A DNA stretch of 32,055 bases from Bacteroidia bacterium (GTDB lineage Bacteria > Bacteroidota > Bacteroidia > UKL13-3): contig JAKRSG010000063.1 of the NCBI GenBank assembly GCA_022402405.1, positions 1-32,055 of the forward strand, given 5' to 3'. This document shows, piece by piece, positions 3,606 through 25,585 of this stretch. The notes beneath the pieces were generated by a model that saw only the letters and a program-made list of their open reading frames with translations, was not told where the DNA came from and did not search any database. The position numbers and the translations under genes are program-made. The first letter of the stretch is position 1. Each line of letters opens with the position of its first letter.

Positions 3606-4312
3606 GATTTGATTTCTTTTTCAAGCATAATTTCGGCAATTGTTTTACCTAATTTCTGCTGACCATTTTTCTCTTTTAGGTCGTTTATAGTTTCAAAGAA
3701 TAATACTTTTCCTTCCTGTAAAAACAATACATGAGAAGCAATTTCATCTAAATCGTTTAAGATATGAGAGGTTATAAGAATGGTTTTATTCTCTCTTTCT
3801 TGTGTAATTTTATCCTTTAATATTTCAGAAGCTACGGGGTCTAAACCAGCAGTTGGTTCATCCAGAATAAGTATTTCTGGGTTAAACATAAATGCTAGAG
3901 CTGCGCTTACTTTTTGTATGGTTCCGCCACTTAGCTGACCTAAATTTTGATGTTCTATTTTTTTTAAGGCAAATTGTTCGAAGAGTTGTTCATCGAGATT
4001 TTTAACGTCTCTAATTTCTTTCATCATTTCGAAAAGCTGGGCTAATTTCATGTTCTCTGGGTACCTTCCCATTTGAGCCATGTATCCAATTTTGTTGCGG
4101 TATTCCGGACCTGCTTGAATAGATTTGCCTTCAATTAATATATCGCCTGTTTGAAACTCTGTTAATCCTAAAATGCACTTGATTAAAGTGGTTTTGCCAG
4201 TGCCATTTTGCCCAATAAGTCCGGCAATCATGCCCTTTTTAAGCTCCACATTTATGCCTTGCAATACGGAGTGTTTGCCGTATTTTTTATGTAAGTTTTG
4301 AACGCTTATCAT
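3602..4312 (-). CDS. nosF: NosF, ABC transporter ATP-binding protein
   Basis: 236 aa with Walker A GQNGTGKTT, ABC signature LSGGTIQK and Walker B ILILDEPTAGLD. It overlaps the nosD stop by 1 nt. Confidence 0.9.
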   Translation of the reverse strand: MISVQNLHKKYGKHSVLQGINVELKKGMIAGLIGQNGTGKTTLIKCILGLTEFQTGDILIEGKSIQAGPEYRNKIGYMAQMGRYPENMKLAQLFEMMKEIRDVKNLDEQLFEQFALKKIEHQNLGQLSGGTIQKVSAALAFMFNPEILILDEPTAGLDPVASEILKDKITQERENKTILITSHILNDLDEIASHVLFLQEGKVLFFETINDLKEKNGQQKLGKTIAEIMLEKEIKS

Positions 4313-5565
4313 TAAATTTTTCTCATTAAAGGGTAGTCGTCTTTTAAGTTTTCTGGTGTTAAAGATGGTAATATTTTTTCTAATACATTCAGTAAGTCTG
4401 CCAAGAAACTTTGTAATAAAATAATAGTGCTTGGATATTCTTCTATTATTCCTGTTAACATATTCATGGGTCTGTAACTTAAATCGCCCATGCCATCTTT
4501 ATTTAAATCGTAGCCTTGATATTTGTCCCAATAATTATGTTTTAAGGTGTTTAACACTGTAAAACCATTGGTTGCATAATCAAAGGTGTTGGTCATAAAA
4601 TTGTTGAACCTAAAATTATTATCGTCGCAGCTGGCTTGCATGCGAAGGGCATAACCATTGTTCGAAAAATGATTGTTTATAAAGTCTGCTCTACTGCACC
4701 CATCCATAAAAATGCCAACTGTATTTTTATCAAAATTATTCTTGTAAAGCTTGCTATCACGAATGTCCTTCAGTAATATTCCATACGAAGAACTACCCCA
4801 GTTTTTATCAAATTTATTCTTTACCATCATAATAAATTGGCTATACATAACGGCCACTCCAGCGCCATTAGCCGCAAAGGTGTTATTGTAGTATGTATCC
4901 GAATCAGAAAACATAAAATGCAAACCGTATCTAAGATTGCCTTCACTATGATTGTTGGCTATGATAGAGTGCTTTACAAATTCAAAATAAATACCATCTC
5001 TTTGTTTTTTAATATTATTGCTAAATATAAAGTTATGTGCAGATTTCCAACAATGAACGCCGTTTCCAACATGGTTTTGCTCTCTGTTTGGTCCGGTAAT
5101 TTGGTTGTTTTGAACCAAACAATAAAAAGAATTAGATAAATAAATCCCAAAGAAATTATTTTCCAGCACATTATTTAAAATTCGCGCAAAACTCTTTTCG
5201 TAAACCTTTATTGCTGCAATATCTTCTAAGTCGGAGAATCCTGAATTTATGAGTTTAAATCCGTTTATGGTAACACAGTCAGAAAGAATTGAAATTATCT
5301 CATGTTTTAGTTCTCCATCCAAAATGGGAAGGTTTTCGCCGATGAGAGTAAGTGGTATCTTAATATTAATATTTGCCTCTTTGTAGTGCCCAGCTTTTAC
5401 CAAAATAGTATCGAATGCATTGGCCTTGTTAATGGTTTCTTGTATTGGTGTCTGACCTGACATAGGTTCAACCAGCCATTTTTTACCATAAACAGATGGT
5501 ACGAGGAATATTATAAATAAAAATAGAATAAACTTATTCATGAACAATTTCTTCTGATTTGCCAC
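4312..5565 (-). CDS. nosD: NosD, periplasmic parallel beta-helix copper-centre maturation protein
   Basis: 417 aa with a signal peptide (FILFLFIIFLVPSVYG) and repeated N-x-I/F-x-x-N-x-x-G-I beta-helix repeats. It lies between nosL and nosF. The track start at 5565 is GTG. The ATG at 5541 (MNKFILF...) gives an 8-nt overlap with the nosL stop and is at least as likely. Confidence 0.9.
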   Translation of the reverse strand: MANQKKLFMNKFILFLFIIFLVPSVYGKKWLVEPMSGQTPIQETINKANAFDTILVKAGHYKEANINIKIPLTLIGENLPILDGELKHEIISILSDCVTINGFKLINSGFSDLEDIAAIKVYEKSFARILNNVLENNFFGIYLSNSFYCLVQNNQITGPNREQNHVGNGVHCWKSAHNFIFSNNIKKQRDGIYFEFVKHSIIANNHSEGNLRYGLHFMFSDSDTYYNNTFAANGAGVAVMYSQFIMMVKNKFDKNWGSSSYGILLKDIRDSKLYKNNFDKNTVGIFMDGCSRADFINNHFSNNGYALRMQASCDDNNFRFNNFMTNTFDYATNGFTVLNTLKHNYWDKYQGYDLNKDGMGDLSYRPMNMLTGIIEEYPSTIILLQSFLADLLNVLEKILPSLTPENLKDDYPLMRKI

Positions 5566-6640: not shown

Positions 6641-8629
6641 TTATTTAGCAGGTGCTGGTGCAACTTTTCCGGTAGAGAAGCTTAATGGAACATTAGAACC
6701 TGCTGGCGAAACTCTAACGTATCCTTGCATTTCTTGATGCAAAGCTGAACAGAAGTCGGTACAATACATTGGGAAAACACCTACGCGGTCTGGCGACCAT
6801 TTTAACGTAGCTGTTTCGCCTGGCATAATTAATAATTCTGCATTGTTAGCACCTTTTACAGCAAATCCATGTGGTACATCCCAATCTTGCTCTAAGTTTG
6901 TTACGTGGAAGTAAACTACATCTCCCATTTTAACACCTTCAATATTATCTGGTGTAAAGTGTGAACGGATAGAGGTCATCCAAACATGTACTTCGTTTCC
7001 TTTTCTTTCTACCTTGGCTTGAGCTTCTCCTTTAGCAGCATATGGATGTTTGTTCTCTTCTATTTTGAAGATTTTAACACTGTTTTTAGCTACTAAATCT
7101 GCTGGAATAGCTTCTGCATAGTGAGGTTCGCCAGTAGTTGGGAAGTCTAATAATAACTTCATTTTTTCACCTTCAATGCTGTAAAGTTGTGCCGACTGAG
7201 TAAGTTCTGGTCCGGTAGGTAAATAACGATCTTTGGTGATTTTGTTATAAGCAATCACATATTTTCCCCAAGGCTTTGTTGTTGGTCCGCCCGGTACGCT
7301 TAAGTGACCAATAGAATAATAAGTAGGAACACGGTCAACTACTTCTAATTTTTCTACGTTCCATTTTACGATTTCAGAGGAAACGAAGAATGAAGTATAA
7401 GCAAAACCATTGGCATCAAACTCCGTATGCAAAGGTCCAAGGCCTGGTTTTTTAACTTCGCCATGTAATACGGCATCGTATTTTAACACTGGAATACCTT
7501 GGTAATCGCCTTCAAAAGTTTTAGCTTCGATAGCTTTAGTAATTTTATCAAAAGAGAATACAGGGATAACAGCGGCTAATTTACCTGAAGCTACAATGTA
7601 TTTTCCGCTTGGGTCAACATCGCAGCCATGTGGTGATTTAGGGCATGGCATAAAGTATACTAAACCTTCGTATTCTTTAGGATCTAACATGATAGATTCT
7701 GTTAAGATTTCGCTTTTTGCAGAATGTGTTTCATCGCTATAAGTGTTGTGTGCATAACGAACTTTTTTCTTAGTTCCTTTACCTTGTTTAACAAGCTCTT
7801 CACATTTTTTCCAGTTTACAGCCATAACAAAGTCTTTATCTTTTTGTGAAGCGTTTACTTCTAATAAAGTATTAGCTTGCTCAGAGTTATAACAAGAGAA
7901 AAATACCCAGTCGCCAGAAGCTTTTTTACCAGCACGAGCTAAGTCGAAGTTCATACCTGGTAATATAATTTGGAAACTTAAGCTCATGTTACCAGATTTT
8001 GGGTCAATACCAATAAAGCTAACCGTACCTTTAAAGTTTTCTTTGTAGGTGTCTATAGATACATCTGGATTGCTGGCAGCGTCGTCCATAGGGTAACTAA
8101 AACGAGTACCAGCCACAACGTATTCAGAGTTTTGAGTAATGAATGGAGAGCTATGGTTACCGCTCGAATTAGGTATCTCAATAATGTCTACAGTGCGGAA
8201 TGTTTTTAAGTCGATACGAGCAATACGTGGAGTATTGTTAGCATTAATAAAAGCCCATCTTCCATCATGAGCTCCCTCCGAAACAGATAGAGCAGGGTGA
8301 TGCGAATCATCCCAAGGCACAAATCCATGTGAAGTATTTAACATAGGTTTGGTTTCTTCGCTATATCCATAACCAGAGGTTGGGTCAACTGAAAATACTG
8401 GAATAATTCTGAATAATCTGCCAGAAGGTATTCCGTATACCGACATCTGTCCGCTGAAACCACCCGATACGAAGTTGTAAAACTCATCGTATTTTCCAGG
8501 CTCTACGTATACTTTAGAAGCTGCATCTTTGTTTGAACCGGATTTTGCACCTTTGTCTTTGCAAGCACCAAACATAGTTACTACCATAATTAGCGCTACG
8601 GTAATAATCTGAATTGATTTTGTTCTCAT
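6641..8629 (-). CDS. nosZ: Nitrous-oxide reductase NosZ, clade II (Sec/lipoprotein type)
   Basis: 662 aa. The N-terminus MRTKSIQIITVALIMVVTMFGAC has no twin-arginine motif. It carries the CuZ histidine motif WDDSHHP and the C-terminal CuA motif CTDFCSALHQEM. Confidence 0.97.
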   Translation of the reverse strand: MRTKSIQIITVALIMVVTMFGACKDKGAKSGSNKDAASKVYVEPGKYDEFYNFVSGGFSGQMSVYGIPSGRLFRIIPVFSVDPTSGYGYSEETKPMLNTSHGFVPWDDSHHPALSVSEGAHDGRWAFINANNTPRIARIDLKTFRTVDIIEIPNSSGNHSSPFITQNSEYVVAGTRFSYPMDDAASNPDVSIDTYKENFKGTVSFIGIDPKSGNMSLSFQIILPGMNFDLARAGKKASGDWVFFSCYNSEQANTLLEVNASQKDKDFVMAVNWKKCEELVKQGKGTKKKVRYAHNTYSDETHSAKSEILTESIMLDPKEYEGLVYFMPCPKSPHGCDVDPSGKYIVASGKLAAVIPVFSFDKITKAIEAKTFEGDYQGIPVLKYDAVLHGEVKKPGLGPLHTEFDANGFAYTSFFVSSEIVKWNVEKLEVVDRVPTYYSIGHLSVPGGPTTKPWGKYVIAYNKITKDRYLPTGPELTQSAQLYSIEGEKMKLLLDFPTTGEPHYAEAIPADLVAKNSVKIFKIEENKHPYAAKGEAQAKVERKGNEVHVWMTSIRSHFTPDNIEGVKMGDVVYFHVTNLEQDWDVPHGFAVKGANNAELLIMPGETATLKWSPDRVGVFPMYCTDFCSALHQEMQGYVRVSPAGSNVPLSFSTGKVAPAPAK

Positions 8630-8655: not shown

Positions 8656-9147
8656 TTATTTTAATCCATCATTCATGCGCAAAAACTCTAACACGTTTCT
8701 AGCATCATCATCCGAAAGGTTTTGATTTGGCATACGAACCAAACACTCTTCCAACATCGCTATTGCTGCTGGATCTTTGTCTAACATCTCTGCAGCATTT
8801 GTAATAAAGTTCATAATCCACTCTGGCTTTCTTCTTTCGGTAACACCTTTGAAGCCGGGACCAACTAAACGTTCTTCTGTAAGTCTATGACAAGATCCAC
8901 ACTTCATATCGTAAATTCCTTTACCTCCATCGGCAAAGGCTTTGTTTAATGTTGGATCTAATTTAATGTCAGTAAATTTTCCTATTCCCTTGTCACTAGT
9001 TTCTTCTGCACTTGCCTCTTGGGTTTGGTCTGAACCAACTTCTTTGCTCGCCGATGCATTTGCGTTCGAGCTGTTGTTTTCTCCACCGCATGATGCCATC
9101 AGAAATATGGCTAAAATGGCGGTTACAGATAAGCTTATTTTTTTCAT
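8656..9147 (-). CDS. Monohaem c-type cytochrome lipoprotein, probable electron donor to NosZ
   Basis: 163 aa with a lipoprotein signal (FLMASC), a low-complexity linker and a single CGSCH haem-binding motif with a distal Met (VRMPNQ). It is the first gene of the operon and ends 26 nt upstream of nosZ. Confidence 0.85.
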   Translation of the reverse strand: MKKISLSVTAILAIFLMASCGGENNSSNANASASKEVGSDQTQEASAEETSDKGIGKFTDIKLDPTLNKAFADGGKGIYDMKCGSCHRLTEERLVGPGFKGVTERRKPEWIMNFITNAAEMLDKDPAAIAMLEECLVRMPNQNLSDDDARNVLEFLRMNDGLK

Positions 9148-9166
9148 GTTTTGTTAGTTTTAATTC

Positions 9167-9180
9167 GGATGTAAAGGTCC
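9167..9180. promoter_or_regulatory. GGAT-N6-GTCC operator-like site S1 (GGATGTAAAGGTCC), 20-33 nt upstream of the cyt c ATG
   Basis: Matches site S2 at 12/14 positions, plus a shared CGT flank. Related sites occur at 13581 and 25547. Confidence 0.5.
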
Positions 9181-9202
9181 GTATTTCACTTCTAATAGTT
9201 CT

Positions 9203-9216
9203 ATGACCGATGTCAA
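9203..9216. promoter_or_regulatory. CRP/FNR-type palindrome ATGAC-cgat-GTCAA
   Basis: Has the TGAY-N4-RTCA geometry. Its centre is 22 bp from the next box, and it lies 56-69 nt upstream of the cyt c ATG. Confidence 0.45.
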
Positions 9217-9224
9217 TAACTGAA

Positions 9225-9238
9225 CTGATATTTGTCAT
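9225..9238. promoter_or_regulatory. CRP/FNR-type palindrome CTGAT-attt-GTCAT
   Basis: This 14-mer is identical to 13563..13576. Confidence 0.5.
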
Positions 9239-9244
9239 AAATAA

Positions 9245-9258
9245 GGATGTTAATGTCC
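9245..9258. promoter_or_regulatory. GGAT-N6-GTCC operator-like site S2 (GGATGTTAATGTCC)
   Basis: Matches 13581..13594 (GGATGTTAATATCC) at 13/14 positions. Confidence 0.5.
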
Positions 9259-9267
9259 GTTATTAAG

Positions 9268-9306
9268 AAAAAAACAAAAAAAACCTCCTCTGTGCAGAGA
9301 AGGTTT
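9268..9306 (-). terminator. Strong intrinsic terminator (minus strand)
   Basis: The stem is 9281-9291 / 9296-9306 with loop gtgc. The single mismatch is C-A on the plus strand but a G-U wobble on the minus strand. On the minus strand it is followed by UUUUUGUUUUUUU. Confidence 0.7.
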
Positions 9307-9574
9307 TGTGTTGAGTGATTTGTGAGTAATTGTTAATGTTTCTTGTAACTGTATTTGTACTGATTTTTTCAGGAGCAAGTAAGCACAATAATAAATGCAT
9401 GACAATACCTAATTTTAGGTATTTTTAAGAATAAATTTAGAATTAAAAAGGAAATTGATTGGTTTTGGGAAGGGTAGATGTGGCAATAAATATTTTTAGG
9501 AGGAAATCCTATTGTACTGAAGAGTGAATATTGCCTGAATTTTTGTCTTTAAAATAGCCATATAGTTTTTGAAA

Positions 9575-9613
9575 AATGATAAAAGTCCCCAAGCAAAAAC
9601 CTTTGCCTGGGGA
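9575..9613 (-). terminator. Intrinsic terminator (minus strand) after the icd / small-ORF unit
   Basis: A 12-bp stem, TCCCCAAGCAAA-aacc-TTTGCCTGGGGA (9586..9613). The mismatch becomes a G-U pair only on the minus strand. It is followed by CUUUUAUCAUUUUUC. Confidence 0.6.
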
Positions 9614-9627
9614 AATTTTACCACAAA

Positions 9628-9831
9628 CTACACTCTATTTTTTGATTGTTTAACTGAGTTTAAATGCTCTGCAAATTTGCATATAAATGCTCCTAAGAAT
9701 ATACTCAGGGCAACAAATAAATGTCGGTGCAAATCTTCATTTGAACATACGGCTAAATAGATGCATATAATCATAAAGATTAAAGTAGATGCAAATTTTA
9801 TAATTAACGATATGTTGTTTTTTGATATCAA
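9628..9831 (-). CDS. Possible small two-TM membrane protein
   Basis: 67 aa with two hydrophobic segments (LIIKFASTLIFMIICIYLAV, LFVALSIFLGAFIC). It starts 30 nt after the icd stop, and its stop lies 15 nt upstream of the 9586..9613 terminator. No homology was recognised. Confidence 0.35.
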   Translation of the reverse strand: MISKNNISLIIKFASTLIFMIICIYLAVCSNEDLHRHLFVALSIFLGAFICKFAEHLNSVKQSKNRV

Positions 9832-9861
9832 GGTATGTGTTGTTTAAAGTAACAAAAGGTA

Positions 9862-11963: not shown

Positions 11964-12003
11964 AATTCGTTCCCGCGGTGGCGGGATTTCGCAATCGCTC
12001 AAA
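11964..12003. repeat. Copy A of a roughly 39-bp hairpin-containing interspersed repeat
   Basis: The sequence is aattcgTTCCCGCggtgGCGGGAtttcgcaatcgctcaaa, with a 6-bp stem TCCCGC/GCGGGA. Two more copies lie at 25420..25497. Confidence 0.8.
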
Positions 12004-12056
12004 CTTCATAATTCATACTTCATAATTCATACTTCATAATTCATACTTCATAATTC
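12004..12056. repeat. 14-bp tandem repeat (cttcataattcata) x about 3.8, abutting the stop codon of the TDO-like gene
   Basis: Direct reading gives units at 12004, 12018, 12032 and 12046 (the last partial). One further unit precedes repeat copy B at 25407..25420. Confidence 0.9.
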
Positions 12057-12991
12057 TAAACCGGAGCTTTCTCCGTCTCAGAAGTTCCCCAATTAGCTAA
12101 TTCCGTTTCGCTCCATAACTCTGGGAAATAAATGCGTCTTTGGAAAGCTGGATGTAAATATTTTTCCCAATGACTGCCACCTGTAGCAGTTTTGGTTTCA
12201 CCTTTCGATTTCAAATAGGTTCTGGCCGTTTCTAAATGTACCATAGGCCAATCAATATTGTATTTTTTATCAAATGCGCGCAAGGCTTCAATTAGGGCTG
12301 TCTGACCCTTTTCGTCTAATTGGGGTAACATCGTTTTGTATTTGTTATTCAAATTATGGGTCTTCATAGTGTTGGCTGTTTGAACAAATAATGGCAGGTA
12401 TTTTTGTTCAAAATCACTTAGTGTTTTATTCTTTTTATTGGTCTCTCTATTAAAACCAGCTTCTTGCCAATATAATAAAGAAAATTTCTCTTCGATAGCG
12501 GTTTCTGGAGTTAAACGATTTCTTAAATAAGCAGGAATCAACAAATCTACATCGGTACACATAAGTTCTATAAACCTAAATTGAGCCGATTGAAATCCGC
12601 TAGCAGGAGATAGGCTCAGCCTAAATTGATTGTAATCTTCATAGCTCATCCCTTGATTCATAATGCTAAATGAACTGCATAGTAAATCGGTGTATCGAAC
12701 CATACGATATAGTTTCTCTACAAATAAATTAGGCTCCATATCGCTTAAACACAATTGATCTAGCTCATGACGAATAAGCTTCAATACCAATTCTGTTATT
12801 TGATGATACACAATAAAGATGGTTTCATCTTTAAAATCTGTGCGTGGATTTTGCAAGGTAAGCAATGTATCTACCTGCACATACTCCCAATAATTAATGG
12901 CTCTGTTGTGCTTTAAGCCTCTTAAATAATTCTCCGGATCTTGCCCGTTTGCTATTAATTTATCTTTTATCTCTTGTAAAATATTCTCCAT
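12056..12991 (-). CDS. Tryptophan 2,3-dioxygenase family protein
   Basis: 311 aa. YWEYVQVDTLLTLQ....ETIFIVYHQITELVLKLIRHEL resembles the conserved N-terminal helices of TDO. A TAAATTTG -7-like box lies on the minus strand at 13038..13031. Confidence 0.6.
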   Translation of the reverse strand: MENILQEIKDKLIANGQDPENYLRGLKHNRAINYWEYVQVDTLLTLQNPRTDFKDETIFIVYHQITELVLKLIRHELDQLCLSDMEPNLFVEKLYRMVRYTDLLCSSFSIMNQGMSYEDYNQFRLSLSPASGFQSAQFRFIELMCTDVDLLIPAYLRNRLTPETAIEEKFSLLYWQEAGFNRETNKKNKTLSDFEQKYLPLFVQTANTMKTHNLNNKYKTMLPQLDEKGQTALIEALRAFDKKYNIDWPMVHLETARTYLKSKGETKTATGGSHWEKYLHPAFQRRIYFPELWSETELANWGTSETEKAPV

Positions 12992-13056: not shown

Positions 13057-13488
13057 CTATTTATTATTCAATACAAAAACATTGTCTTTCAGTTGCTCAG
13101 AAAGCTCATGTATCATAGTGTTTTCTAGCATTTTCTTTAAATCTGTGCGCACGTTTAAAAAATGATAATGAAGCGGACATGGATTTTTGGCGTTGCACTG
13201 TTTTAGACCCAAACCGCATGCCGTAAAAATTGAATCGCCATCTACCACCTTAACAATATCAATTAATCTTACTTTGCTTTCAGGTTTTATAAAAAAACCA
13301 CCACCCGGACCTTTAGATGATTGAATTAGGTCTGCATGAACTAATTTCTGAAGGAGTTTAGCAATGTATTGAGCAGGCACATCTGCCTTTTCTGAGATTT
13401 CATGTAAGTTAGATTTATGCCCATCCTGGGTGTTTTGGCAGATAATAATTACTGCTCTTATAGCGTATTCACAAGATTTTGAAAACAT
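13057..13488 (-). CDS. Rrf2-family transcriptional regulator (NsrR/IscR-like, probable Fe-S sensor)
   Basis: 143 aa with an N-terminal winged helix (SKSCEYAIRAVIII...ISEKADVPAQYIAKLLQKL) and a C-x6-C-x5-C-x2-H cluster-ligand motif (ACGLGLKQCNAKNPCPLH). Confidence 0.85.
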   Translation of the reverse strand: MFSKSCEYAIRAVIIICQNTQDGHKSNLHEISEKADVPAQYIAKLLQKLVHADLIQSSKGPGGGFFIKPESKVRLIDIVKVVDGDSIFTACGLGLKQCNAKNPCPLHYHFLNVRTDLKKMLENTMIHELSEQLKDNVFVLNNK

Positions 13489-13562
13489 AACTTTGATATA
13501 TAAAAGTTCGCAAAATAAGGTTTAATTCTGTTTCTAAAAACAGATATAAGTATCTTTTTTAT

Positions 13563-13576
13563 CTGATATTTGTCAT
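13563..13576. promoter_or_regulatory. CRP/FNR-type palindrome CTGAT-attt-GTCAT
   Basis: Identical to 9225..9238. It lies 75 nt upstream of the rrf2 ATG. Confidence 0.5.
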
Positions 13577-13598
13577 TTTCGGATGTTAATATCCGAAA
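13577..13598. promoter_or_regulatory. Operator-like inverted repeat S3, TTTCGGAT-gttaat-ATCCGAAA
   Basis: Perfect 8-bp arms. The core GGATGTTAATATCC matches the nos site S2 at 13/14 positions. It sits immediately upstream of the fasciclin -7 box. Confidence 0.55.
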
Positions 13599-13606
13599 TA
13601 TGTTTG
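13599..13606 (+). promoter_or_regulatory. Bacteroidota-type -7 box TATGTTTG for the fasciclin gene
   Basis: Matches TAnnTTTG and starts 29 nt upstream of ATG 13628. A TTTC lies 18 nt upstream in the -33 position. Confidence 0.4.
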
Positions 13607-13627: not shown

Positions 13628-14185
13628 ATGAAGAAATTATTTTTAAGTGCATTGGCCTTGGTAGGTTTGTTTTACCTAAGTTCTTGTGGAAACTCTGAAG
13701 CCACTAGTAGCGAAAATTCTGCTGAAACAGAAGCATCATCAGGCGGCGGACAAGCTTCGGTTCAAGACGATTTATCTGAAAAAGATATTGTAAAAGTAGC
13801 GGTTGGTTCAGCCGACCACTCAACATTGGTAACTGCAGTGAAAGCTGCTGATTTGGTAAATGTATTATCAAATGCTGGTCCGTTTACCGTTTTTGCTCCA
13901 GTTAACAAAGCCTTTGATGAGTTGCCAGCAGGTGCAGTGGAAGATTTATTAAAACCAGAAAAAAAAGAGGCTTTACAAGATGTTTTACAATATCATGTGG
14001 CTGTTGCGGTTTATCAACCAAGCATGTTTACCGATGGTCAGAAAATTGAAATGGTGAACGGAGGTTATGCCACCATTAGCATCAAAGATGGCAAAACGTT
14101 TATCAACGATGCAGAGCTTTTAGGAAATGTTAAAGCTTCTAATGGTATCGTTTATGTGTTAGACAAAGTTTTGTTACCTCAATAG
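13628..14185 (+). CDS. Fasciclin (FAS1) domain lipoprotein
   Basis: I prefer the start at the internal ATG 13628 (MKKLFLSALALVGLFYLSSC is a lipoprotein signal), because the track start at 13583 lies inside the operator palindrome. FAS1 motifs are TLVTAVKAADL, GPFTVFAPVNKAF, VLQYHV and NGIVYVLDKVLLP. Confidence 0.85.
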   Translation: MKKLFLSALALVGLFYLSSCGNSEATSSENSAETEASSGGGQASVQDDLSEKDIVKVAVGSADHSTLVTAVKAADLVNVLSNAGPFTVFAPVNKAFDELPAGAVEDLLKPEKKEALQDVLQYHVAVAVYQPSMFTDGQKIEMVNGGYATISIKDGKTFINDAELLGNVKASNGIVYVLDKVLLPQ

Positions 14186-14212: not shown

Positions 14213-14253
14213 AAAAGACTCATTTGTAGACAACAAATGGGTCTTTTTATTTT
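14213..14253 (+). terminator. Intrinsic terminator after the fasciclin gene, shared with the convergent mbnH-like gene
   Basis: AGACTCATTTGT-agaca-ACAAATGGGTCT (14216..14244) followed by TTTTTATTTT. The single non-Watson-Crick pair is a G-U wobble on the plus strand. Confidence 0.65.
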
Positions 14254-15302
14254 ATATAATCCCAATCACTAAGTGCTTTTAGAAAGGCAATTAATTGCTG
14301 CTTTTGTATGGGTGTTAAATTCAATTTTCTAGTTCCATTTCTTTTGTTTAATAGTGGATCTACATGTTTATCGTCGGATACACCTTCGTTGTAATGATCT
14401 ATTACTTGCTCCAAGTTGCTAAACCTCCCATCGTGCATGTATGGAGCCGTAAATTCAATGTTTCTAAGTGTTGGACTTAAGAACTTACCCATGTCTTCTT
14501 GCCTTTGTGTTAGGTTAAACAGGCCTTTATCGGAGCCGTTGTAGCTTATATTTAAACCAGTATTGTGAAATTCTTGATCGCTAAACAATGGATCAGAATG
14601 ACAATGAAAGCAATCGCCTTTCTCCGAGAAAAAAATTACATAGCCTTCATGTTCCATTTGGTTTAGGCTCAATTCTCTTCTTTTAAATTTATCGAATTTA
14701 GAGTTAGCGCTAATCATGGTTCTTATATGCTGAGCCAAAGCCATGGCTATGGTTTTTTTGAGTTGGTGGTAAGGAACTTCTTCTATTTTATTAATACCAA
14801 ACGCTTTCTTAAAAAGACTTGGATATACCGAATGCTCCGATAGTTTTTTATAAAGTTCATCGGGTTTTGTATTAAAAAATTCAGGCTCAAAATCGCCCAT
14901 AGCCAAGGTGTCTAAATTGTGCTCTGATCCTGTCCAATTAAACTTATTTCTAAAGGCTAAATTAACATGCGGTGGCACACTAATTTTAGTTCCCGACCAA
15001 GAATTAAAAATGGGTAAAGAAAAGGAATTTTCTTTAAGATGACAGCTGCTACACGACCTTCCATTGCTAGATAAAATAGGGTCTGAATAGAGCATTTTAC
15101 CTAATTGAATACCTTCTATTGTAAGTGGGTTTTCTTTGGATAAATAGGATTTTGGGAACCCCGTTGGAATGGCTAATGAATAGGGGGTAGGTTCATTATT
15201 TTCTGGATTTACCGTCGTTTCTTCCTGGCAAGATATGCTTAACAAAAGCATTCCTACACATGCCATTAGTTTAGTTTTGTATAAGGAAGGTGTCATAGCC
15301 AT
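14247..15302 (-). CDS. Dihaem cytochrome c peroxidase / MauG family protein (MbnH-like)
   Basis: 351 aa with two CxxCH motifs (CSSCH, CFHCH) and a lipoprotein-like signal (LLLSISC). It overlaps or abuts the upstream MbnP-like gene. Alternative starts are at 15296 and 15266. Confidence 0.85.
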   Translation of the reverse strand: MAMTPSLYKTKLMACVGMLLLSISCQEETTVNPENNEPTPYSLAIPTGFPKSYLSKENPLTIEGIQLGKMLYSDPILSSNGRSCSSCHLKENSFSLPIFNSWSGTKISVPPHVNLAFRNKFNWTGSEHNLDTLAMGDFEPEFFNTKPDELYKKLSEHSVYPSLFKKAFGINKIEEVPYHQLKKTIAMALAQHIRTMISANSKFDKFKRRELSLNQMEHEGYVIFFSEKGDCFHCHSDPLFSDQEFHNTGLNISYNGSDKGLFNLTQRQEDMGKFLSPTLRNIEFTAPYMHDGRFSNLEQVIDHYNEGVSDDKHVDPLLNKRNGTRKLNLTPIQKQQLIAFLKALSDWDYIK

Positions 15303-16017
15303 TATTTTTTAAGTGTTGCATTAATGCTGGTATCGCCATAGTGTAATTGCCATCTACGTTAAAGTTGTAGGTGTGTGGATTTTGAAACCATTCATTCACA
15401 TTCATTATACAGTTAAGTATAGCTGGCTTTTCTTTTTGAATATGAATGTTTATGTTAAGTTTCCTGTGTTTAATAAGCATTTCATTGGTTCCAACATGCA
15501 TGGTATAACCAAGGTTAACGCCTGCTGTGTCCAAATATCTGCCTTCTAATTTTAAAAAATGATAGCCTCCGCCAATTACATCAGGCCATTGCATATTTAT
15601 ATTTTCAGTGGTATTTTCTAAACTGTTGCTGATATTTTTGTCAGCAGCAATTCCTATCAAAAATTCTATGGCCGTATAATCTCCTTCCACTACGTGCTGA
15701 ACCAACAACTTATTCTCCTTATTCCTAGCATTAATATAATATGTAGCATCGCTATGCAGGAAAGTGCTATCTTCTTTGTATAGTTTTATTCCTGAAATAT
15801 AATATTCTAGTCTGCTCACGCTGTAGGGAGATTCCGATGAATTCTGATATAAAATGCTATCAAATTCGAGTAAAATTCCATTTACTTCATGTGATATTTC
15901 AATTGTTAAACTTGTATTTGGAAGTTCTACTTGGTTTATTAATTCTTTTTTACATGAACCTAAACCTATTGAAATTAATATAAAATTTAGTATAGCTATG
16001 GTTGATATGTTTTTCAT
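15271..16017 (-). CDS. MbnP-like lipoprotein (partner of the MbnH-like peroxidase)
   Basis: 248 aa with a lipoprotein signal (IGLGSC). The segment NMQWPDVIGGGYHFLKLEGRY and the size and gene pairing resemble the MbnP family. The call rests on pairing plus motif recollection. Confidence 0.55.
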   Translation of the reverse strand: MKNISTIAILNFILISIGLGSCKKELINQVELPNTSLTIEISHEVNGILLEFDSILYQNSSESPYSVSRLEYYISGIKLYKEDSTFLHSDATYYINARNKENKLLVQHVVEGDYTAIEFLIGIAADKNISNSLENTTENINMQWPDVIGGGYHFLKLEGRYLDTAGVNLGYTMHVGTNEMLIKHRKLNINIHIQKEKPAILNCIMNVNEWFQNPHTYNFNVDGNYTMAIPALMQHLKNNGYDTFLIQN

Positions 16018-16024
16018 TTTAGAA

Positions 16025-16032
16025 CAAAGATA
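16025..16032 (-). promoter_or_regulatory. -7 box TATCTTTG (minus strand) for the mbnP-like gene
   Basis: The plus strand reads caaagata, which matches TAnnTTTG on the minus strand. It ends 7 nt upstream of ATG 16017. Confidence 0.35.
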
Positions 16033-16054: not shown

Positions 16055-16068
16055 CTGACGACAGTCAG
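16055..16068. promoter_or_regulatory. CRP/FNR-type palindrome CTGAC-gaca-GTCAG between the divergent mbnP-like and nadA promoters
   Basis: Perfect 5-bp arms with a 4-bp spacer. Confidence 0.4.
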
Positions 16069-18572: not shown

Positions 18573-19883
18573 TTATGATTTTATAAGCTTAGGCATTCTT
18601 AGTAAATGTACTCCAATAATTCCCAAGCCTACACTGAGTAAAAATCCGCCTAACACAAATAACATAAAGAAGGGTTTTGATTGCTCCATCATGCTGGAGA
18701 AGCTTCCTGCTCGTTCACTCATTTGCCAGAATCCTTTGTAAATTCCCGCTAATATCAACCCAAGCCAAAGCATAAACAAGCCAATTTGGGTCAGCCAAAA
18801 TACTTGATGCATGTGTTTGCTGTATGTTTTATTTGGTTCAGACATAAATAAAAAGCTTGCGGCTAAAATAATCATGGTGTTTATGCCAATTGTAGTTCCC
18901 ATGGCATGTGCCACAGTTATGTGTGTGCCATGTGTATATAAATTAAAGGCAGGCACCGACATAATAAGCGCTTGAATTAAATTTAAGAATACCCAAAAGT
19001 TGGCCGCTGCAATAAATCTGTAAGCAAAAATAGATTGATATTTTTTTACTTCGGAAATTTCTGCTTTCCATTGGTAGAGTGTTTTAAGGAGAAAAATCCA
19101 TTCGGTCATGCTAACTAAATATCCCACATACCTTATGTATTCTTGTGTTGGCAGGGTATAAATATGGTGACTCCAATTAAACAACATGTTAAATAAGCCT
19201 AAGAAATACAAGGCAAAGGTTGTTTTACTGTAGGCCATTTCCGACTCACCGCTGATTTTATCCATTAGGTAAAATAAGGAGCCATATAAAATCTGATTCC
19301 AAGCGCCCACGAGCGAGCCATTTACTTTCCATTGTATGCTAATGTCTTTCACAATATTTTGATTGAAATAAGGAATAAGCCAAAGATAATTTTCGATGAA
19401 AATATAGATAAAAAAGGTCAAGCCTGTCATCCACATATACAAGTATACAGGCCATTTTATTTTGAAGCTTACCGTTCTAAAGAATTGAATCAAAAATAAT
19501 ATCCAAGCCAAGGCAATTGGAATGGCCCAAATGGGATTAAATTCCCAATATTCTCTGCCTCCAAACTGCTTGTTGAAGTAGGAATAAAACACACCCAAAA
19601 CAGCTATTATCCACAGTGCATATTGCATCAGCGCCATGGTTTTATTAATGCGTTCATGGAAGAGTTGGTTCAGCCCGAAATATACGCAGGCTGTGGCACT
19701 TAAAAGTATCCAAAAAATAGCAGCACTTACGTGCATGGGTCGGAGTGAAACGAGTCCAAATGAATCTATTAATAACTCTGGAAACAAATAGCTTAAGCTT
19801 GCTAGGCAGCCAAAAAGTAGGGTGCTTAAAAGGATAACTAATGCCGTTTTTATATATATACTTCCTAGGTTAATACTGCTCAT
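18573..19883 (-). CDS. Heme-copper oxidoreductase superfamily subunit I homolog (NorB-like), with a non-canonical ligand set
   Basis: 436 aa, consistent with about 12 TM segments. It has LRPMHVSAAIFW (helix II-type His), NWSHHIYT (HH pair) and LYTHGTHITVAHAMGT (helix X-type motif). There is no His at all between FHERI and SHH. It overlaps the upstream cytochrome c gene by 14 nt. Confidence 0.8.
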   Translation of the reverse strand: MSSINLGSIYIKTALVILLSTLLFGCLASLSYLFPELLIDSFGLVSLRPMHVSAAIFWILLSATACVYFGLNQLFHERINKTMALMQYALWIIAVLGVFYSYFNKQFGGREYWEFNPIWAIPIALAWILFLIQFFRTVSFKIKWPVYLYMWMTGLTFFIYIFIENYLWLIPYFNQNIVKDISIQWKVNGSLVGAWNQILYGSLFYLMDKISGESEMAYSKTTFALYFLGLFNMLFNWSHHIYTLPTQEYIRYVGYLVSMTEWIFLLKTLYQWKAEISEVKKYQSIFAYRFIAAANFWVFLNLIQALIMSVPAFNLYTHGTHITVAHAMGTTIGINTMIILAASFLFMSEPNKTYSKHMHQVFWLTQIGLFMLWLGLILAGIYKGFWQMSERAGSFSSMMEQSKPFFMLFVLGGFLLSVGLGIIGVHLLRMPKLIKS

Positions 19884-20289
19884 GTTTTAGAGGTTTAATC
19901 ATGCCCCAAGGGTATACTTCAAATTCTTTTGGTTGTGCAATTCCACTTTTGTTTAAGGATACCAAAAATTGATATAAACTTTCCAATTCTGTTTCGCTTA
20001 AATTAAAACTTGGCATCTGTTGTGCGGCACTTTTTATGGCGCTAGAAAGAAACAATTTCCTATCGCCTGATTGTCCGGCATAGTTTGTTAAATCTGGTCC
20101 GAGGTAACCTCCTAAACCATATATTTGGTGACAGCTTTGGCAGTTGTATTTCTGCCAAACCAGTTTGCCTTGGCTAATTACTTGGGCAATTTTTGGGTCT
20201 GTTTCGGAGTGCGATGAAGAGAGGTAAATACTCCAAGAATAATACAAATAGCTTAAGCATAAAATAAGGAAAACGAGTATTGGTTTCAT
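19870..20289 (-). CDS. Membrane-anchored monohaem cytochrome c (NorC-like position)
   Basis: 139 aa with an N-terminal TM anchor, CQSCH followed by GLGGYLGPDL, and a distal Met (QQMPSF). Confidence 0.8.
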   Translation of the reverse strand: MKPILVFLILCLSYLYYSWSIYLSSSHSETDPKIAQVISQGKLVWQKYNCQSCHQIYGLGGYLGPDLTNYAGQSGDRKLFLSSAIKSAAQQMPSFNLSETELESLYQFLVSLNKSGIAQPKEFEVYPWGMIKPLKHEQY

Positions 20290-20309
20290 GCTGGGAATGA
20301 CTTTAAAAT

Positions 20310-23764: not shown

Positions 23765-23810
23765 AGTTAATAATTTGATTCGAAATTCGTGAAACGGGGT
23801 ATGGTTGTTA

Positions 23811-23824
23811 CTGATAGCAGTCAG
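23811..23824. promoter_or_regulatory. CRP/FNR-type box CTGAT-agca-GTCAG, 47-60 nt upstream of the GT2 ATG
   Basis: Shares the TGAY-N4-RTCA core. Its centre is 52 bp from the perfect FNR box. Confidence 0.4.
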
Positions 23825-23862
23825 TTTTTTAATTGATTTATGTTAGTCTTCTGAGTATTATT

Positions 23863-23876
23863 TTGATCTGAATCAA
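23863..23876. promoter_or_regulatory. Perfect FNR-consensus box TTGAT-ctga-ATCAA
   Basis: Exact match to TTGAT-N4-ATCAA. It lies in the 133-bp gap between the crp/fnr stop and the GT2 start. Confidence 0.65.
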
Positions 23877-23897
23877 TTTATTTAAAAGGAATTGATT

Positions 23898-24584
23898 TTA
23901 CCTGTTGGCTAATTGAATTAATTCCTGACGTTTGGCAATTTTTATATACTTTTTGTGTAGTTCTACTAAGCCTTCACTTTGCCATGATTTTAGAATACGT
24001 ATGATGGTTTCTGATGCTAAACCAGTATAGGCGCCCAAGTCTTCGCGAGTGAGTTGAATTTGAAGGTAGTTCTCGGCGTTTACACCATATTTTCTTTCTA
24101 AAAATAAGAGCGCCTCTGCTAATCTTTCCTTACTTGTTTTCTGAATGAAAAATACCGATTTTTCCTCTACTTCACTTATAGTTTTGGCCATTAATTTTAG
24201 AAATCCCATCATAAATTTTTTATTATGCTCTAATAATATAATTACTAATTCTTTTGGAACAAGTAAGGTGGAACAATCTTCCAAAACTTCAGCTGTTGCG
24301 ATATATTTTCCATTTCCAACTAATCCTCTATAGCCGATAATATCTCCCTCAATAGCCAACGATAAAATTTGATTATTTCCATTGGCGCCAGTTTTATAAA
24401 GCTTCACTTTTCCACTTATCATAATATGAATATATTTTACAGTGTCTGACTCGGTGAAAAGGAGCTGACCCTTTTTGAATTTTTTTTCGTTACTCTGGGT
24501 TTCTATGATCGACCATTCTTTTTGAGTACAAGCGCCAAATAGTTTATTACATTCGAGGATTATTTTAATAATTAGATCTTCCAA
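23898..24584 (-). CDS. Crp/Fnr-family transcriptional regulator
   Basis: 228 aa with a cNMP-binding-like beta-roll (FKKGQLLFTESD...ISGKVKLYK) and the C-terminal HTH TREDLGAYTGLASETIIRILKSWQSEG, which resembles FNR ...GLTVETISRLL. It has only three Cys (C12, C19, C104), so it lacks the classical FNR 4-Cys arrangement. Confidence 0.9.
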   Translation of the reverse strand: MEDLIIKIILECNKLFGACTQKEWSIIETQSNEKKFKKGQLLFTESDTVKYIHIMISGKVKLYKTGANGNNQILSLAIEGDIIGYRGLVGNGKYIATAEVLEDCSTLLVPKELVIILLEHNKKFMMGFLKLMAKTISEVEEKSVFFIQKTSKERLAEALLFLERKYGVNAENYLQIQLTREDLGAYTGLASETIIRILKSWQSEGLVELHKKYIKIAKRQELIQLANR

Positions 24585-24659: not shown

Positions 24660-25382
24660 TTAATTGGCTATACTTTCTTCCATTAATATGGCCTTAGGAA
24701 ACAATATATTATTCTCTAAATGCACATGTTGGTGGAGGTCGTCTTCAAATTCTTCTAGTTTGGCAAATAATGCTTTATAGGTATTGCAGGCCCAATCTGG
24801 TGTTGTGTATTGCTTACTTAATACGGCAATTTCTTTTAATAAATCTCCCGCTTTCTCATGCTCCATTTCCATCATGCGTATAGGGTTTTTGGCCGAACCA
24901 AATGGAGGTACATTCATCGTTGAGTTCGTTTTTTTTACTTGAACCAATTGCTTGATATAGGGAAATAATATTTGCTCTTCTTTTTGCATATGACTGTGTA
25001 ACTCGGCTGCTACTATTTTAAATAATTCTAAAATTTTGTAGAGTTCTGGACTTGCATTTCCATGCACTTTAGCTACTTTTTCGGCATATTGCAAGGTGAG
25101 AGGAATGTTTTCTGAAACATATACATGATGTGTGTTGATAATATATTCGCTTAAGAAATCAAGTTCCCAACCATTGAAGTTGTGAGATGGAAAAGTGTTG
25201 TTTCCAATAGCTGCAATATCTGCACTTAGTGCCTCTATATTTACTCCCTTTTTCTCGCAAGCCTTGGCAACACTTACCCCGCCACCACAACAAAAATCAA
25301 TACCGTATTTTTTAAATACATGCGCTGCTTTAATGTTCTCAGAAACAATTTCAGCAACTGTTCTTTCTTTTAATTCATTCAT
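24660..25382 (-). CDS. ytfE: Iron-sulfur cluster repair di-iron protein (RIC / YtfE / ScdA family)
   Basis: 240 aa with the N-terminal ScdA_N motif FKKYGIDFCCGGGVS and hemerythrin-like His/Glu motifs (HHVYVSE, HMQKEEQILFP, MEHEKAG, HVHLENNILFP). Confidence 0.9.
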   Translation of the reverse strand: MNELKERTVAEIVSENIKAAHVFKKYGIDFCCGGGVSVAKACEKKGVNIEALSADIAAIGNNTFPSHNFNGWELDFLSEYIINTHHVYVSENIPLTLQYAEKVAKVHGNASPELYKILELFKIVAAELHSHMQKEEQILFPYIKQLVQVKKTNSTMNVPPFGSAKNPIRMMEMEHEKAGDLLKEIAVLSKQYTTPDWACNTYKALFAKLEEFEDDLHQHVHLENNILFPKAILMEESIAN

Positions 25383-25406: not shown

Positions 25407-25497
25407 AATTCATACTTCATTCCCGCAGTGGCGGGATTTCGCTTTCGCTCAAAATTCGTTCCCGCAGTGGCGGGATTTCGCTATCGCTCAAAATTCG
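25407..25497. repeat. One 14-bp unit (aattcatacttcat) followed by tandem copies B and C of the hairpin repeat
   Basis: TCCCGCagtgGCGGGAtttcgctttcgctcaaaattcg is followed by TTCCCGCagtgGCGGGAtttcgctatcgctcaaaattcg, with a 39-bp period. The same element occurs at 11964..12003. Confidence 0.85.
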
Positions 25498-25546
25498 TAA
25501 TTGACTTTTGTTTCCTCTGCAAAGTTGCAACATTGTTTTTAATAAA

Positions 25547-25560
25547 GGATAATTTTATCC
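25547..25560. promoter_or_regulatory. Operator-like site S4, GGATAA-tt-TTATCC
   Basis: Perfect inverted repeat fitting GGAT-N6-ATCC. It shares the ATCCGA flank with site S3. Confidence 0.4.
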
Positions 25561-25571
25561 GATATTATTAT

Positions 25572-25585
25572 GTGATTTTTATCAG
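25572..25585. promoter_or_regulatory. CRP/FNR-type box GTGAT-tttt-ATCAG
   Basis: Matches TTGAT-N4-ATCAA at 8/10 positions. It begins 11 bp after the end of S4. Confidence 0.4.

Follow-up and report, generated by a model that had tools for sequence, protein, structure and literature searches.

We examined a 32,055-nucleotide stretch of a Bacteroidia bacterium genome (contig JAKRSG010000063.1, G+C 35%; hereafter the window), in which a composite promoter element recurs upstream of a nitrous oxide (N2O) reductase operon and in the divergent promoter region of an Rrf2-family regulator gene. On the minus strand of the window lies a clade II (Sec-type) nos cluster made up of nosC, nosZ, nosD and ABC components. 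The cytochrome c gene nosC (8656-9147, ATG at 9147) and the clade II Sec-type nosZ (6641-8629) belong to an operon that continues into nosD (4312-5565), nosF and nosY. The regulator gene, rrf2 (143 amino acids, 13057-13488, minus strand, ATG at 13488), is divergent from a plus-strand gene for a fasciclin-domain lipoprotein, fas (13628-14185, with its true start at 13628). Also on the minus strand are ric (24660-25382), encoding a di-iron Fe-S repair protein of the ScdA/YtfE type, and, after it, a Crp/Fnr-family regulator gene, crp (23898-24584). A homologue scan with the Rrf2 protein of the window gave 80 Bacteroidota loci (top identity 66%), with rrf2 beside nosZ in 21 and no nos genes in the other 59. 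The closest eight loci keep the order mbnP-mbnH, fas, then divergent rrf2-(tdo)-nosC-nosZ-nosD, and fas is a conserved neighbour of rrf2 and nos in the related loci.

The shared sequences that first drew attention to these promoters were confirmed by reading the sequence. The 14-mer CTGATATTTGTCAT at 13563-13576 is identical to 9225-9238, and GGATGTTAATATCC (13581-13594) matches GGATGTTAATGTCC (9245-9258) at 13 of 14 positions, the former lying within an extended inverted repeat, TTTCGGAT-N6-ATCCGAAA, at 13577-13598. Order and orientation are the same at both loci, with 14-mer and palindrome separated by 4 nt at rrf2 and 6 nt at nos, and with 75 nt between the 14-mer and the minus-strand ATG of rrf2 (13488) as against 78 nt at nos (9147). 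Aligned on the minus strand, the two modules span 35 columns with a single 2-nt gap.

Resemblance of this kind could arise by chance in AT-rich intergenic DNA and carry no function. By our own rough estimate about a dozen chance repeats of this length occur per 32 kb at 35% G+C, which makes the exact 14-mer alone unremarkable, and single TGA-N6-TCA boxes likewise stay within the range of shuffled sequence. The combination of 14-mer and palindrome, unlike the 14-mer alone, is remarkable. The top local alignment of the two promoter regions scores 39, against 20.1 +/- 2.7 in shuffles, a value reached by only 1 of 5000 (Gumbel p ~9e-5 per pair), and of the 91 intergenic pairings in the window only one, due to a REP-like (repetitive extragenic palindrome-like) repeat, ranks higher. 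The pattern GGAYN6RTCC occurs four times in the window (0.68 expected), always in intergenic DNA: at 9167 and 9245 (nos), 13581 (rrf2/fas) and 25547 (upstream of ric-crp). A palindrome and a box 4-13 nt apart are found four times in the window, where 0.047 are expected, and 51 times in 1.44 Mb of related loci, where 2.1 are expected. These counts and the alignment shuffles bear out the original prediction that the sharing is unlikely by chance. Considered together with the conserved arms and variable spacers of the orthologues and the recovery of the sites by an independently trained matrix, both described below, they leave coincidence with hardly any probability.

The element consists of two separate parts: a CRP/FNR-type box, TGA-N6-TCA, and a 14-bp palindrome, rGAy-N6-rTCy. 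The box TGATATTTGTCA forms the core of the 14-mer, at 13564-13575 in the rrf2/fas region and, in an identical copy (nos box 1), at 9226-9237. We considered and rejected the whole 32 bp as a single site for one protein, as the palindrome stands alone at 52 rrf2 genes and the box alone at mbnP, at a glycosyltransferase gene (GT2) and at a second nos box. The gap between palindrome and box peaks sharply at 5-7 nt, or about 19 bp from centre to centre, and all 51 modules in related loci lie upstream of nosC, fas, ric, rrf2 or a cytochrome c and heme-copper oxidase gene pair (cyc-hco). A third composite module of the window, at 25547-25584 upstream of ric-crp, comprises the palindrome GGATAATTTTATCC (25547-25560), 12 nt, and the box TGATTTTTATCA (25573-25584), an arrangement also present in two relatives (L001 and L081). 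It is one of three related sites that had been overlooked, the others being a palindrome at 9167-9180 and a TGA box at 9204-9215, previously taken for a generic palindrome. The two kinds of motif are thus enriched, conserved, held in a fixed geometry and associated exclusively with these genes.

Outside nos clusters, the palindrome tracks rrf2. In 52 of the 59 loci without nos, including those of Aquimarina, Tenacibaculum and Cellulophaga, a palindrome of the form tATAAA-GGATAnnTTTGTCC-gTTATa ends 35-48 nt before the rrf2 start codon, and it is the sequence conserved ahead of rrf2 throughout Bacteroidota, chiefly in Flavobacteriia. Where rrf2 lies downstream in a fas-rrf2 or ric-rrf2 operon, the palindrome precedes that operon, and in genome comparisons such placement is the usual mark of a local regulator that controls its own gene. 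The full consensus, with its AT-rich flanks, is TTTATAAAGGAtAAatTTaTCCTTTATAAA. A matrix trained only on the 52 rrf2-upstream sites, with the window and all nos loci left out, ranked 25547, 9245, 13542, 13581 and 9167 as the top five of ~32,000 window positions. In 100 shuffles the maximum averaged 3.9 bits and the highest reached 16.6, and two window palindromes exceed all of these: the one upstream of ric-crp (34.3 bits, the best match) and the distal nos palindrome GGATGTTAATGTCC at 9245-9258 (22.4 bits), which lies 7 nt from nos box 1. The third-best match is a second palindrome between rrf2 and fas, AGATATAAGTATCT (13542-13555, 11.0 bits), the fourth-best is the palindrome at 13577-13598 (core 13581-13594, 8.8 bits), and the fifth is the proximal nos palindrome TTCGGATGTAAAGGTCCGTA (9164-9183, core 9167-9180, 7.7 bits). 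From this distribution we infer that the 14-bp palindrome is the operator of the Rrf2 protein encoded at 13057-13488.

Two subsidiary proposals about the rrf2/fas region fared less well. The sequence now recognized as the second Rrf2-type palindrome, AGATA-taag-TATCT at 13542-13555, is present as described and had been likened to ATGAC-cgat-GTCAA at nos, a likeness that proved to be positional only, the motif types being different: the nos sequence is a second box of the CRP/FNR type. An overlapping inverted repeat, TCTGTTT-ctaa-AAACAGA at 13527-13544, is also present but is conserved in no orthologue, and we dropped it.

Alignments of the rrf2/fas intergenic and nosC upstream regions (9 orthologous regions) show classic footprints. 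The palindrome arms TTTCGGA and ATCC, the TGA and TCA triplets of the boxes (including nos box 1) and a TAnnTTTG-like octamer are invariant, while the spacers within motifs vary; this holds for the palindrome at 13577-13598, and the palindrome at 13542-13555 is partly conserved. The proximal nos palindrome is the most conserved block upstream of nos, with GAC.TTTACATCCGA invariant, and the distal one is found in five of nine close orthologues and also in nos promoters of Chitinophagales. The common regulon originally proposed, nos together with an autoregulated rrf2, is supported by the palindrome conserved before rrf2 genes and by the footprints of both elements in nos and rrf2/fas orthologues. 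Its scope was drawn too narrowly, with ric-crp, fas and an operon encoding a NorB-like oxidase also predicted to belong to it.

A different origin for the element would be a dispersed repeat of the REP or MITE (miniature inverted-repeat transposable element) type, or a recently copied segment, unrelated to regulation. The two window modules do agree beyond what the motifs require, in the N6 of the box and in the palindrome spacer GTTAAT, and a genuine REP-like repeat is present in the window. Moreover, in four of eight genomes the rrf2 box is the same as nos box 1, even though the boxes differ from genome to genome (permutation p = 0.004; window 9226-9237 and 13564-13575, also L001, L002 and L004). 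Such within-genome identity hints that one promoter was copied from the other or converted by it, or that the boxes co-evolved with the regulator. Copying would account for the surplus of identity, though not for the origin or the conservation of the element. Copies in different genomes share the motif arms only, without terminal repeats or target-site duplications. The original prediction had named a dispersed repeat as the finding that would overturn it; instead, every GGAYN6RTCC match of the window is intergenic and lies in a promoter, and the 51 modules of the relatives precede just five gene families. We therefore regard a repeat without regulatory function as very unlikely.

The REP-like repeat itself is a 50-nt sequence (AATTCGTTCCCGCrGTGGCGGGATTTCGC..TCGCTCAAA) present three times, at 11964-12013, 25414-25463 and 25453-25502, the last two copies falling within the predicted 133-nt ric leader. 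Adjoining the first copy, the stretch 11999-12054 holds four tandem copies of a 14-nt unit, TCATACTTCATAAT, and a close relative (L081) has different repeats at the corresponding place.

Boxes of the CRP/FNR type share the consensus aTGAy-N4-rTCAt across the related loci. The strict pattern ATGAYNNNNRTCAT has no match in the window, local flanks being different, and the looser TGA-N6-TCA was used for box searches in its place. In addition to the boxes within modules, we found nos box 2, TGACCGATGTCA (9204-9215), 22 bp from nos box 1; a lone box upstream of mbnP-mbnH (16056-16067), conserved in L001-L006; and two boxes between crp and a run of GT2, rml and cyc-hco genes (23812-23823 and 23864-23875), conserved beside Crp orthologues in L081-L086. 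The mbnPH genes and the GT2-rml-cyc-hco run have a box only, without a palindrome.

The candidate binder of these boxes, the Crp/Fnr-family protein, has cNMP_binding and HTH_Crp_2 domains and a recognition helix, ASETIIRILK, that is FNR-like (E..xR). We take its SETIIR segment to resemble E209/R213 of FNR. An FNR-type N-terminal cluster of four cysteines is not evident, with only C12 and C19 within the first 30 residues of the longest reading frame, and close relatives of 203 amino acids appear, judged by length only, to start downstream of both. With the FNR subfamily model the protein reaches 94.8, where the cut-off is 228. The operon next to crp has conserved TGA-N6-TCA boxes in four diverged genomes, and the box is probably bound by this protein or by a paralogue. 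A metagenome scan with the Crp protein returned no confirmed relative, and its gene contexts were taken from homologous proteins and their encoding contigs. The expectation that Crp orthologues would lie beside ric or nos held only in the closest relatives, L081 and L082, the distant ones standing beside GT2/rml genes. Even where Crp identity is no more than 47-49%, the crp gene and a GT2-rmlC-epimerase-rmlD cluster are kept together, with tandem TGA boxes conserved in the interval (window 23765-23897, 20290-20309). In the lineage of the window, this sugar-nucleotide cluster has NorB-like genes attached to it, a curious combination of functions. A CRP/FNR-type and an Rrf2-type regulator had both been named originally as the ones to test, and both choices fit what we found: the box has the CRP/FNR form and class II geometry, and the palindrome accompanies rrf2.

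That geometry emerges when the motifs are placed relative to the core promoter. The -7 octamer of flavobacterial sigma-A promoters, TAnnTTTG, spans -12 to -5 (PMC9723704). Across the related loci, 41 boxes end exactly 23 nt ahead of a TAnnTTTG-like octamer and 11 end 45 nt ahead of one, and box centres are therefore predicted at -41.5 and -63.5. In the window the box-to-octamer distance is 23 nt for fas, mbnP and the GT2-rml-cyc-hco run and 24 nt for nos box 2. The predicted octamers are TATGTTTG for fas (13599-13606, plus strand; TATATTTG in orthologues), TTATTTTG for rrf2 (13511-13518, minus strand; a TTTTGCG block conserved in the closest orthologues), TATCTTTG for mbnP (16025-16032, minus strand, 23 nt after the box at 16056-16067) and GAATTTCG for the GT2-rml-cyc-hco run (23 nt after the box at 23812-23823). 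A sigma-70 promoter scan, which is not applicable to Bacteroidota, gave no excess over shuffles. The predicted mbnP leader is only ~3 nt (ATG at 16017), with the same spacing in L001 and L002, and the mbnP mRNA would be nearly leaderless.

On this scale, the rrf2/fas box would be centred at -41.5 for fas and -63.5 for rrf2, nos box 1 at ~-64.5, and nos box 2 near -42, the class II position. Palindromes fall into three classes by the distance from their end to the octamer. In 53 cases it is 16-18 nt (predicted centre ~-36.5), placing them over the -33 element, as in rrf2 autoregulation and at ric; in nine it is 4 nt (predicted centre -23.5), as at fas in the clade of the window; and in 16 it is 41 nt (predicted centre -60.5), directly upstream of a class II box, at nos, cyc-hco and the fas genes of Chitinophagales. 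The palindrome at 13577-13598, which has the box on one side and the fas octamer on the other, would be centred at -23.5 for fas, and AGATATAAGTATCT, with predicted centres at ~-42.5 for rrf2 and -62.5 for fas, is likely to be the autoregulatory operator of rrf2. Since the order in this region is palindrome, box, palindrome, each of the two promoters has one distal and one proximal operator. At nos, the proximal palindrome overlaps the predicted -7-like octamer GACCTTTA (9172-9179, minus strand) and the predicted start site. The predicted centres in the ric-crp module are -38.5 and -63.5, counted from the -7-like octamer CAACTTTG (25520-25527, minus strand). The box starts just where the informative flank of the Rrf2 site (ATA at +4 to +6) stops, so that Rrf2 and CRP/FNR proteins would have to touch or compete.

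An intrinsic-terminator-like hairpin with a T-run (9280-9307, minus strand) marks the upstream limit of the nos promoter, and L001 has an equivalent hairpin immediately upstream of nos box 1. The region 9259-9861 extends over ~600 bp downstream of an isocitrate dehydrogenase gene and is devoid of long reading frames and Rfam matches. Within it are two terminator-like hairpins on the minus strand (9613-9586 and 9307-9280) and a 67-amino-acid, membrane-like reading frame at 9628-9831. An Rfam search of the whole window returned no RNA family matches, and a riboswitch or small-RNA reading of the palindromes is unsupported as a result.

The Rrf2 protein has a clear winged-helix domain (PF02082, 85 bits, E 6.7e-24), and the cysteines of its C91-X6-C98-X5-C104 motif are, together with C6, invariant in 81 homologues, a pattern that fits an Fe-S sensor. 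Cys6 lies in the N-terminal motif MFSKSCEY. To judge by NsrR and RsrR, whose clusters have N-terminal ligands, it may be a fourth cluster ligand supplied by the partner subunit. The protein is not an NsrR orthologue, scoring 30.9 bits against the equivalog NF008240 with its cut-off of 182; its best NCBIfam match is IscR (64.7 bits), again below the cut-offs of that family. The closest solved relatives are RsrR and IscR (E ~1e-7), with NsrR weaker (1e-4). By analogy with known regulons, the gene content would point to nitric oxide (NO). Palindromes precede rrf2, ric, the NorB-like operon and nos, a set of NO detoxification and repair genes plus autoregulation; ric is immediately downstream of rrf2 in many genomes, and truncated globin genes adjoin rrf2 in others. 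In flavobacterial loci without nos (L007-L079), rrf2 is followed by ric, a truncated globin gene, a gene for a 112-amino-acid cupin, or one for a 150-amino-acid membrane protein. The last has no Pfam match, carries the motif FIWIGFVCAISFMEAWLKFQAPG and may be an uncharacterised NO-stress factor.

The same two protein families could bind these sites in response to a signal other than NO. Rrf2 might, like RsrR and IscR, respond to redox or Fe-S status, and the signal for the CRP/FNR protein might be some unrelated metabolite. The ranking of solved relatives and the NCBIfam match both lean in this direction, as does a Crp protein with no obvious FNR-type four-cysteine cluster, whose relatives one source calls regulators of polysaccharide utilisation. 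No isc or suf genes lie nearby, however, and the combination of ric, truncated globins, a NorB-like oxidase and nos is typical of NO-responsive regulons (PMC1274295). On balance, we consider a signal other than NO somewhat unlikely.

We propose that these promoters carry a composite cis-regulatory module, an Rrf2 operator joined to a CRP/FNR box, that places nos, fas, rrf2 and ric-crp under dual control, a reading to which we give a probability of roughly 0.75 on the available sequence comparisons. The module probably links the nitrous-oxide reductase and nitric-oxide-defence genes of Bacteroidota in one regulon. A CRP/FNR-family activator would turn the promoters on from -41.5 (class II) or -63.5 (class I-like), and a holo Fe-S Rrf2 protein, working like NsrR, would hold them off. 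Where Rrf2 operators overlap the -33 region, the spacer or the -7 region, repression would act by occlusion of the core promoter; at ~-60.5, beside the activator site, bound Rrf2 would block the activator or its upstream contact with polymerase. Damage to the Fe-S cluster by NO is assumed to release Rrf2. Dual control would extend over the clade II nos operon, fas, rrf2 and ric-crp, and in relatives over the operon of the NorB-like oxidase. The pairing of proteins with sites, the direction of regulation, the effectors (NO, O2) and the transcription starts are what we infer in this scheme.

At the promoters with the palindrome near -60.5 beside a class II box, Rrf2 might instead act as a co-activator, in a class III-like promoter with two activators. 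In CRP/FNR promoters, sites centred at -60.5 are classical for upstream activators, some Rrf2 proteins, such as IscR, can activate, and the palindrome-box gap is fixed at 5-7 nt with ~19 bp between centres. At rrf2, ric and the fas promoters of the window's clade, though, the palindrome overlaps the -33 element, the spacer or the -7 element, all repressor positions, and the Rrf2 flank reaches the first base of the box, where the two proteins would abut or compete. NsrR-type regulators, moreover, are mostly repressors (PMC1274295). We judge co-activation by Rrf2 to be unlikely.

Several observations weigh against dual control by an NsrR-like repressor and the Crp protein of the window. The position at -60.5 is not a classical one for a repressor, and the distal nos palindrome is absent from four of nine close relatives. 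The three palindromes nearest rrf2 and nosC score 7.7-11 bits, above the mean shuffle maximum of 3.9 and below the highest, 16.6. Single TGA boxes are individually not above chance: the top matches of a box matrix are the nos and rrf2 boxes, with scores equalled by shuffles, and the box therefore counts only through co-occurrence, conservation and geometry. The conserved neighbour of crp is a glycosyltransferase/rhamnose cluster rather than denitrification genes, and a Crp homologue is rarely found within 10 kb of rrf2 in the relatives. For both reasons the assignment of the boxes to this Crp protein is weak, and a different CRP/FNR paralogue may be the actual activator. The Rrf2 protein falls far below the equivalog cut-offs of NsrR and IscR, and the palindrome departs from the NsrR operator consensus (PMC1274295), so that NO sensing is an analogy from regulon content only. 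Every promoter position depends on predicted -7 octamers, and protein-site binding, expression and start sites are all predicted.

A more specific form of the proposal, which we offer tentatively and hold somewhat less probable than its opposite, is that the module is a dedicated switch of fixed spacing, in which Rrf2 is set against a class II activator, blocking or assisting it until NO appears. Fasciclin would then belong to the N2O-respiration regulon, and the MbnP/MbnH copper pair would join it through the box alone. Genes for a fasciclin lipoprotein (13628-14185), MbnP and MbnH (14247-16017, minus strand) and a tryptophan-2,3-dioxygenase-like protein (12056-12991) are conserved neighbours of clade II nos (loci L001-L017). 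MbnP is a copper-binding protein and MbnH its di-heme partner, and these neighbours could deliver copper to NosZ. The cyc-hco pair (18573-20289, minus strand), which encodes a cytochrome c and a heme-copper oxidase of 436 amino acids, stands 20 nt after rmlD in the window; in Chitinophagales it has a palindrome-plus-box module of its own. Its oxidase is distant from known enzymes, the top solved relative being NorB (4xyd, E 3e-11) and cbb3 oxidase a weaker one, and it may be a divergent NO reductase.

The proposed system resembles and departs from known ones in several respects. As with NsrR of proteobacteria, Bacillus and Streptomyces, a member of the Rrf2 family with three conserved C-terminal cysteines would be autoregulated and paired with palindromic operators over core promoters. 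The cysteine spacing of C-X6-C-X5-C, the additional invariant Cys6 and the equivalog score of 30.9 against 182 bits set the protein apart from NsrR, as does an operator of the form rGAy-N6-rTCy with AT-rich TTTATAAA flanks, which does not match the NsrR consensus gATGyAT-N5-ATrCATc. NsrR controls ytfE/ric/dnrN, globin genes and, in certain taxa, genes of denitrification. In the 2005 reconstruction of NO regulons, Bacteroides and Porphyromonas come up for HcpR2 alone, and Flavobacteria and Cytophaga are nowhere mentioned (PMC1274295). Like class II sites of FNR, DNR and NnrR (TTGAT-N4-ATCAA at -41.5), the boxes have a TGA-N6-TCA core predicted at -41.5 or one to two turns upstream; they precede nos and nor-like genes, and an E..xR Crp/Fnr protein is encoded nearby. 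Unlike those systems, A is preferred over T in the flank (aTGAy versus TTGAT), the promoters are of the Bacteroidota -33/-7 kind, an FNR cysteine cluster is not evident and the conserved neighbour of crp is the GT2/rml cluster.

Dual control by FNR and NsrR is known at Neisseria aniA and norB and at Escherichia coli ytfE and hcp. The NsrR regulon extends to the denitrification genes of Neisseria (PMC1274295). The system proposed here would likewise set a low-oxygen or NO-responsive CRP/FNR activator and an NO-released Rrf2 repressor on the same promoters, but as a unit of fixed spacing (5-7 nt gap) reused across promoters and several Bacteroidota orders, and with a clade II nosZ cluster lacking NosR as its main target. 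In CytR-CRP anti-activation in E. coli, the repressor site is directly beside the activator site and repression is aimed at the activator instead of polymerase access, CytR being of the LacI family; by analogy, any likeness would be limited to a possible mechanism at the -60.5/-41.5 promoters. The adjacency of rrf2 and Bacteroidetes nosZ on clade II nos scaffolds was reported by Calderoli et al. 2018 (PMC6264515), which gives gene adjacency only, without motif, promoter architecture or regulon. Our literature search found no description of the palindrome operator, the composite module or nos control in clade II Bacteroidota, and no discussion of fasciclin in relation to nosZ, one paper mentioning both words once each. 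The known logic of FNR/DNR with NsrR would appear to have been rebuilt from another Rrf2 subfamily, another operator and the promoter elements of Bacteroidota.

Bacteroidota with clade II nosZ are regarded as important sinks of the greenhouse gas N2O, and they lack NosR. Our analysis supplies an operator motif, an activator box, a promoter grammar of near single-base regularity and a predicted regulon, and it singles out the fasciclin lipoprotein, MbnP/MbnH and the divergent NorB-like oxidase as proteins that are likely to work together with N2O reductase. How these bacteria turn on N2O reduction is now open to direct test. If the more tentative reading, a dedicated switch of fixed spacing, is right, these abundant N2O consumers would need NO to express their clade II N2O reductase.

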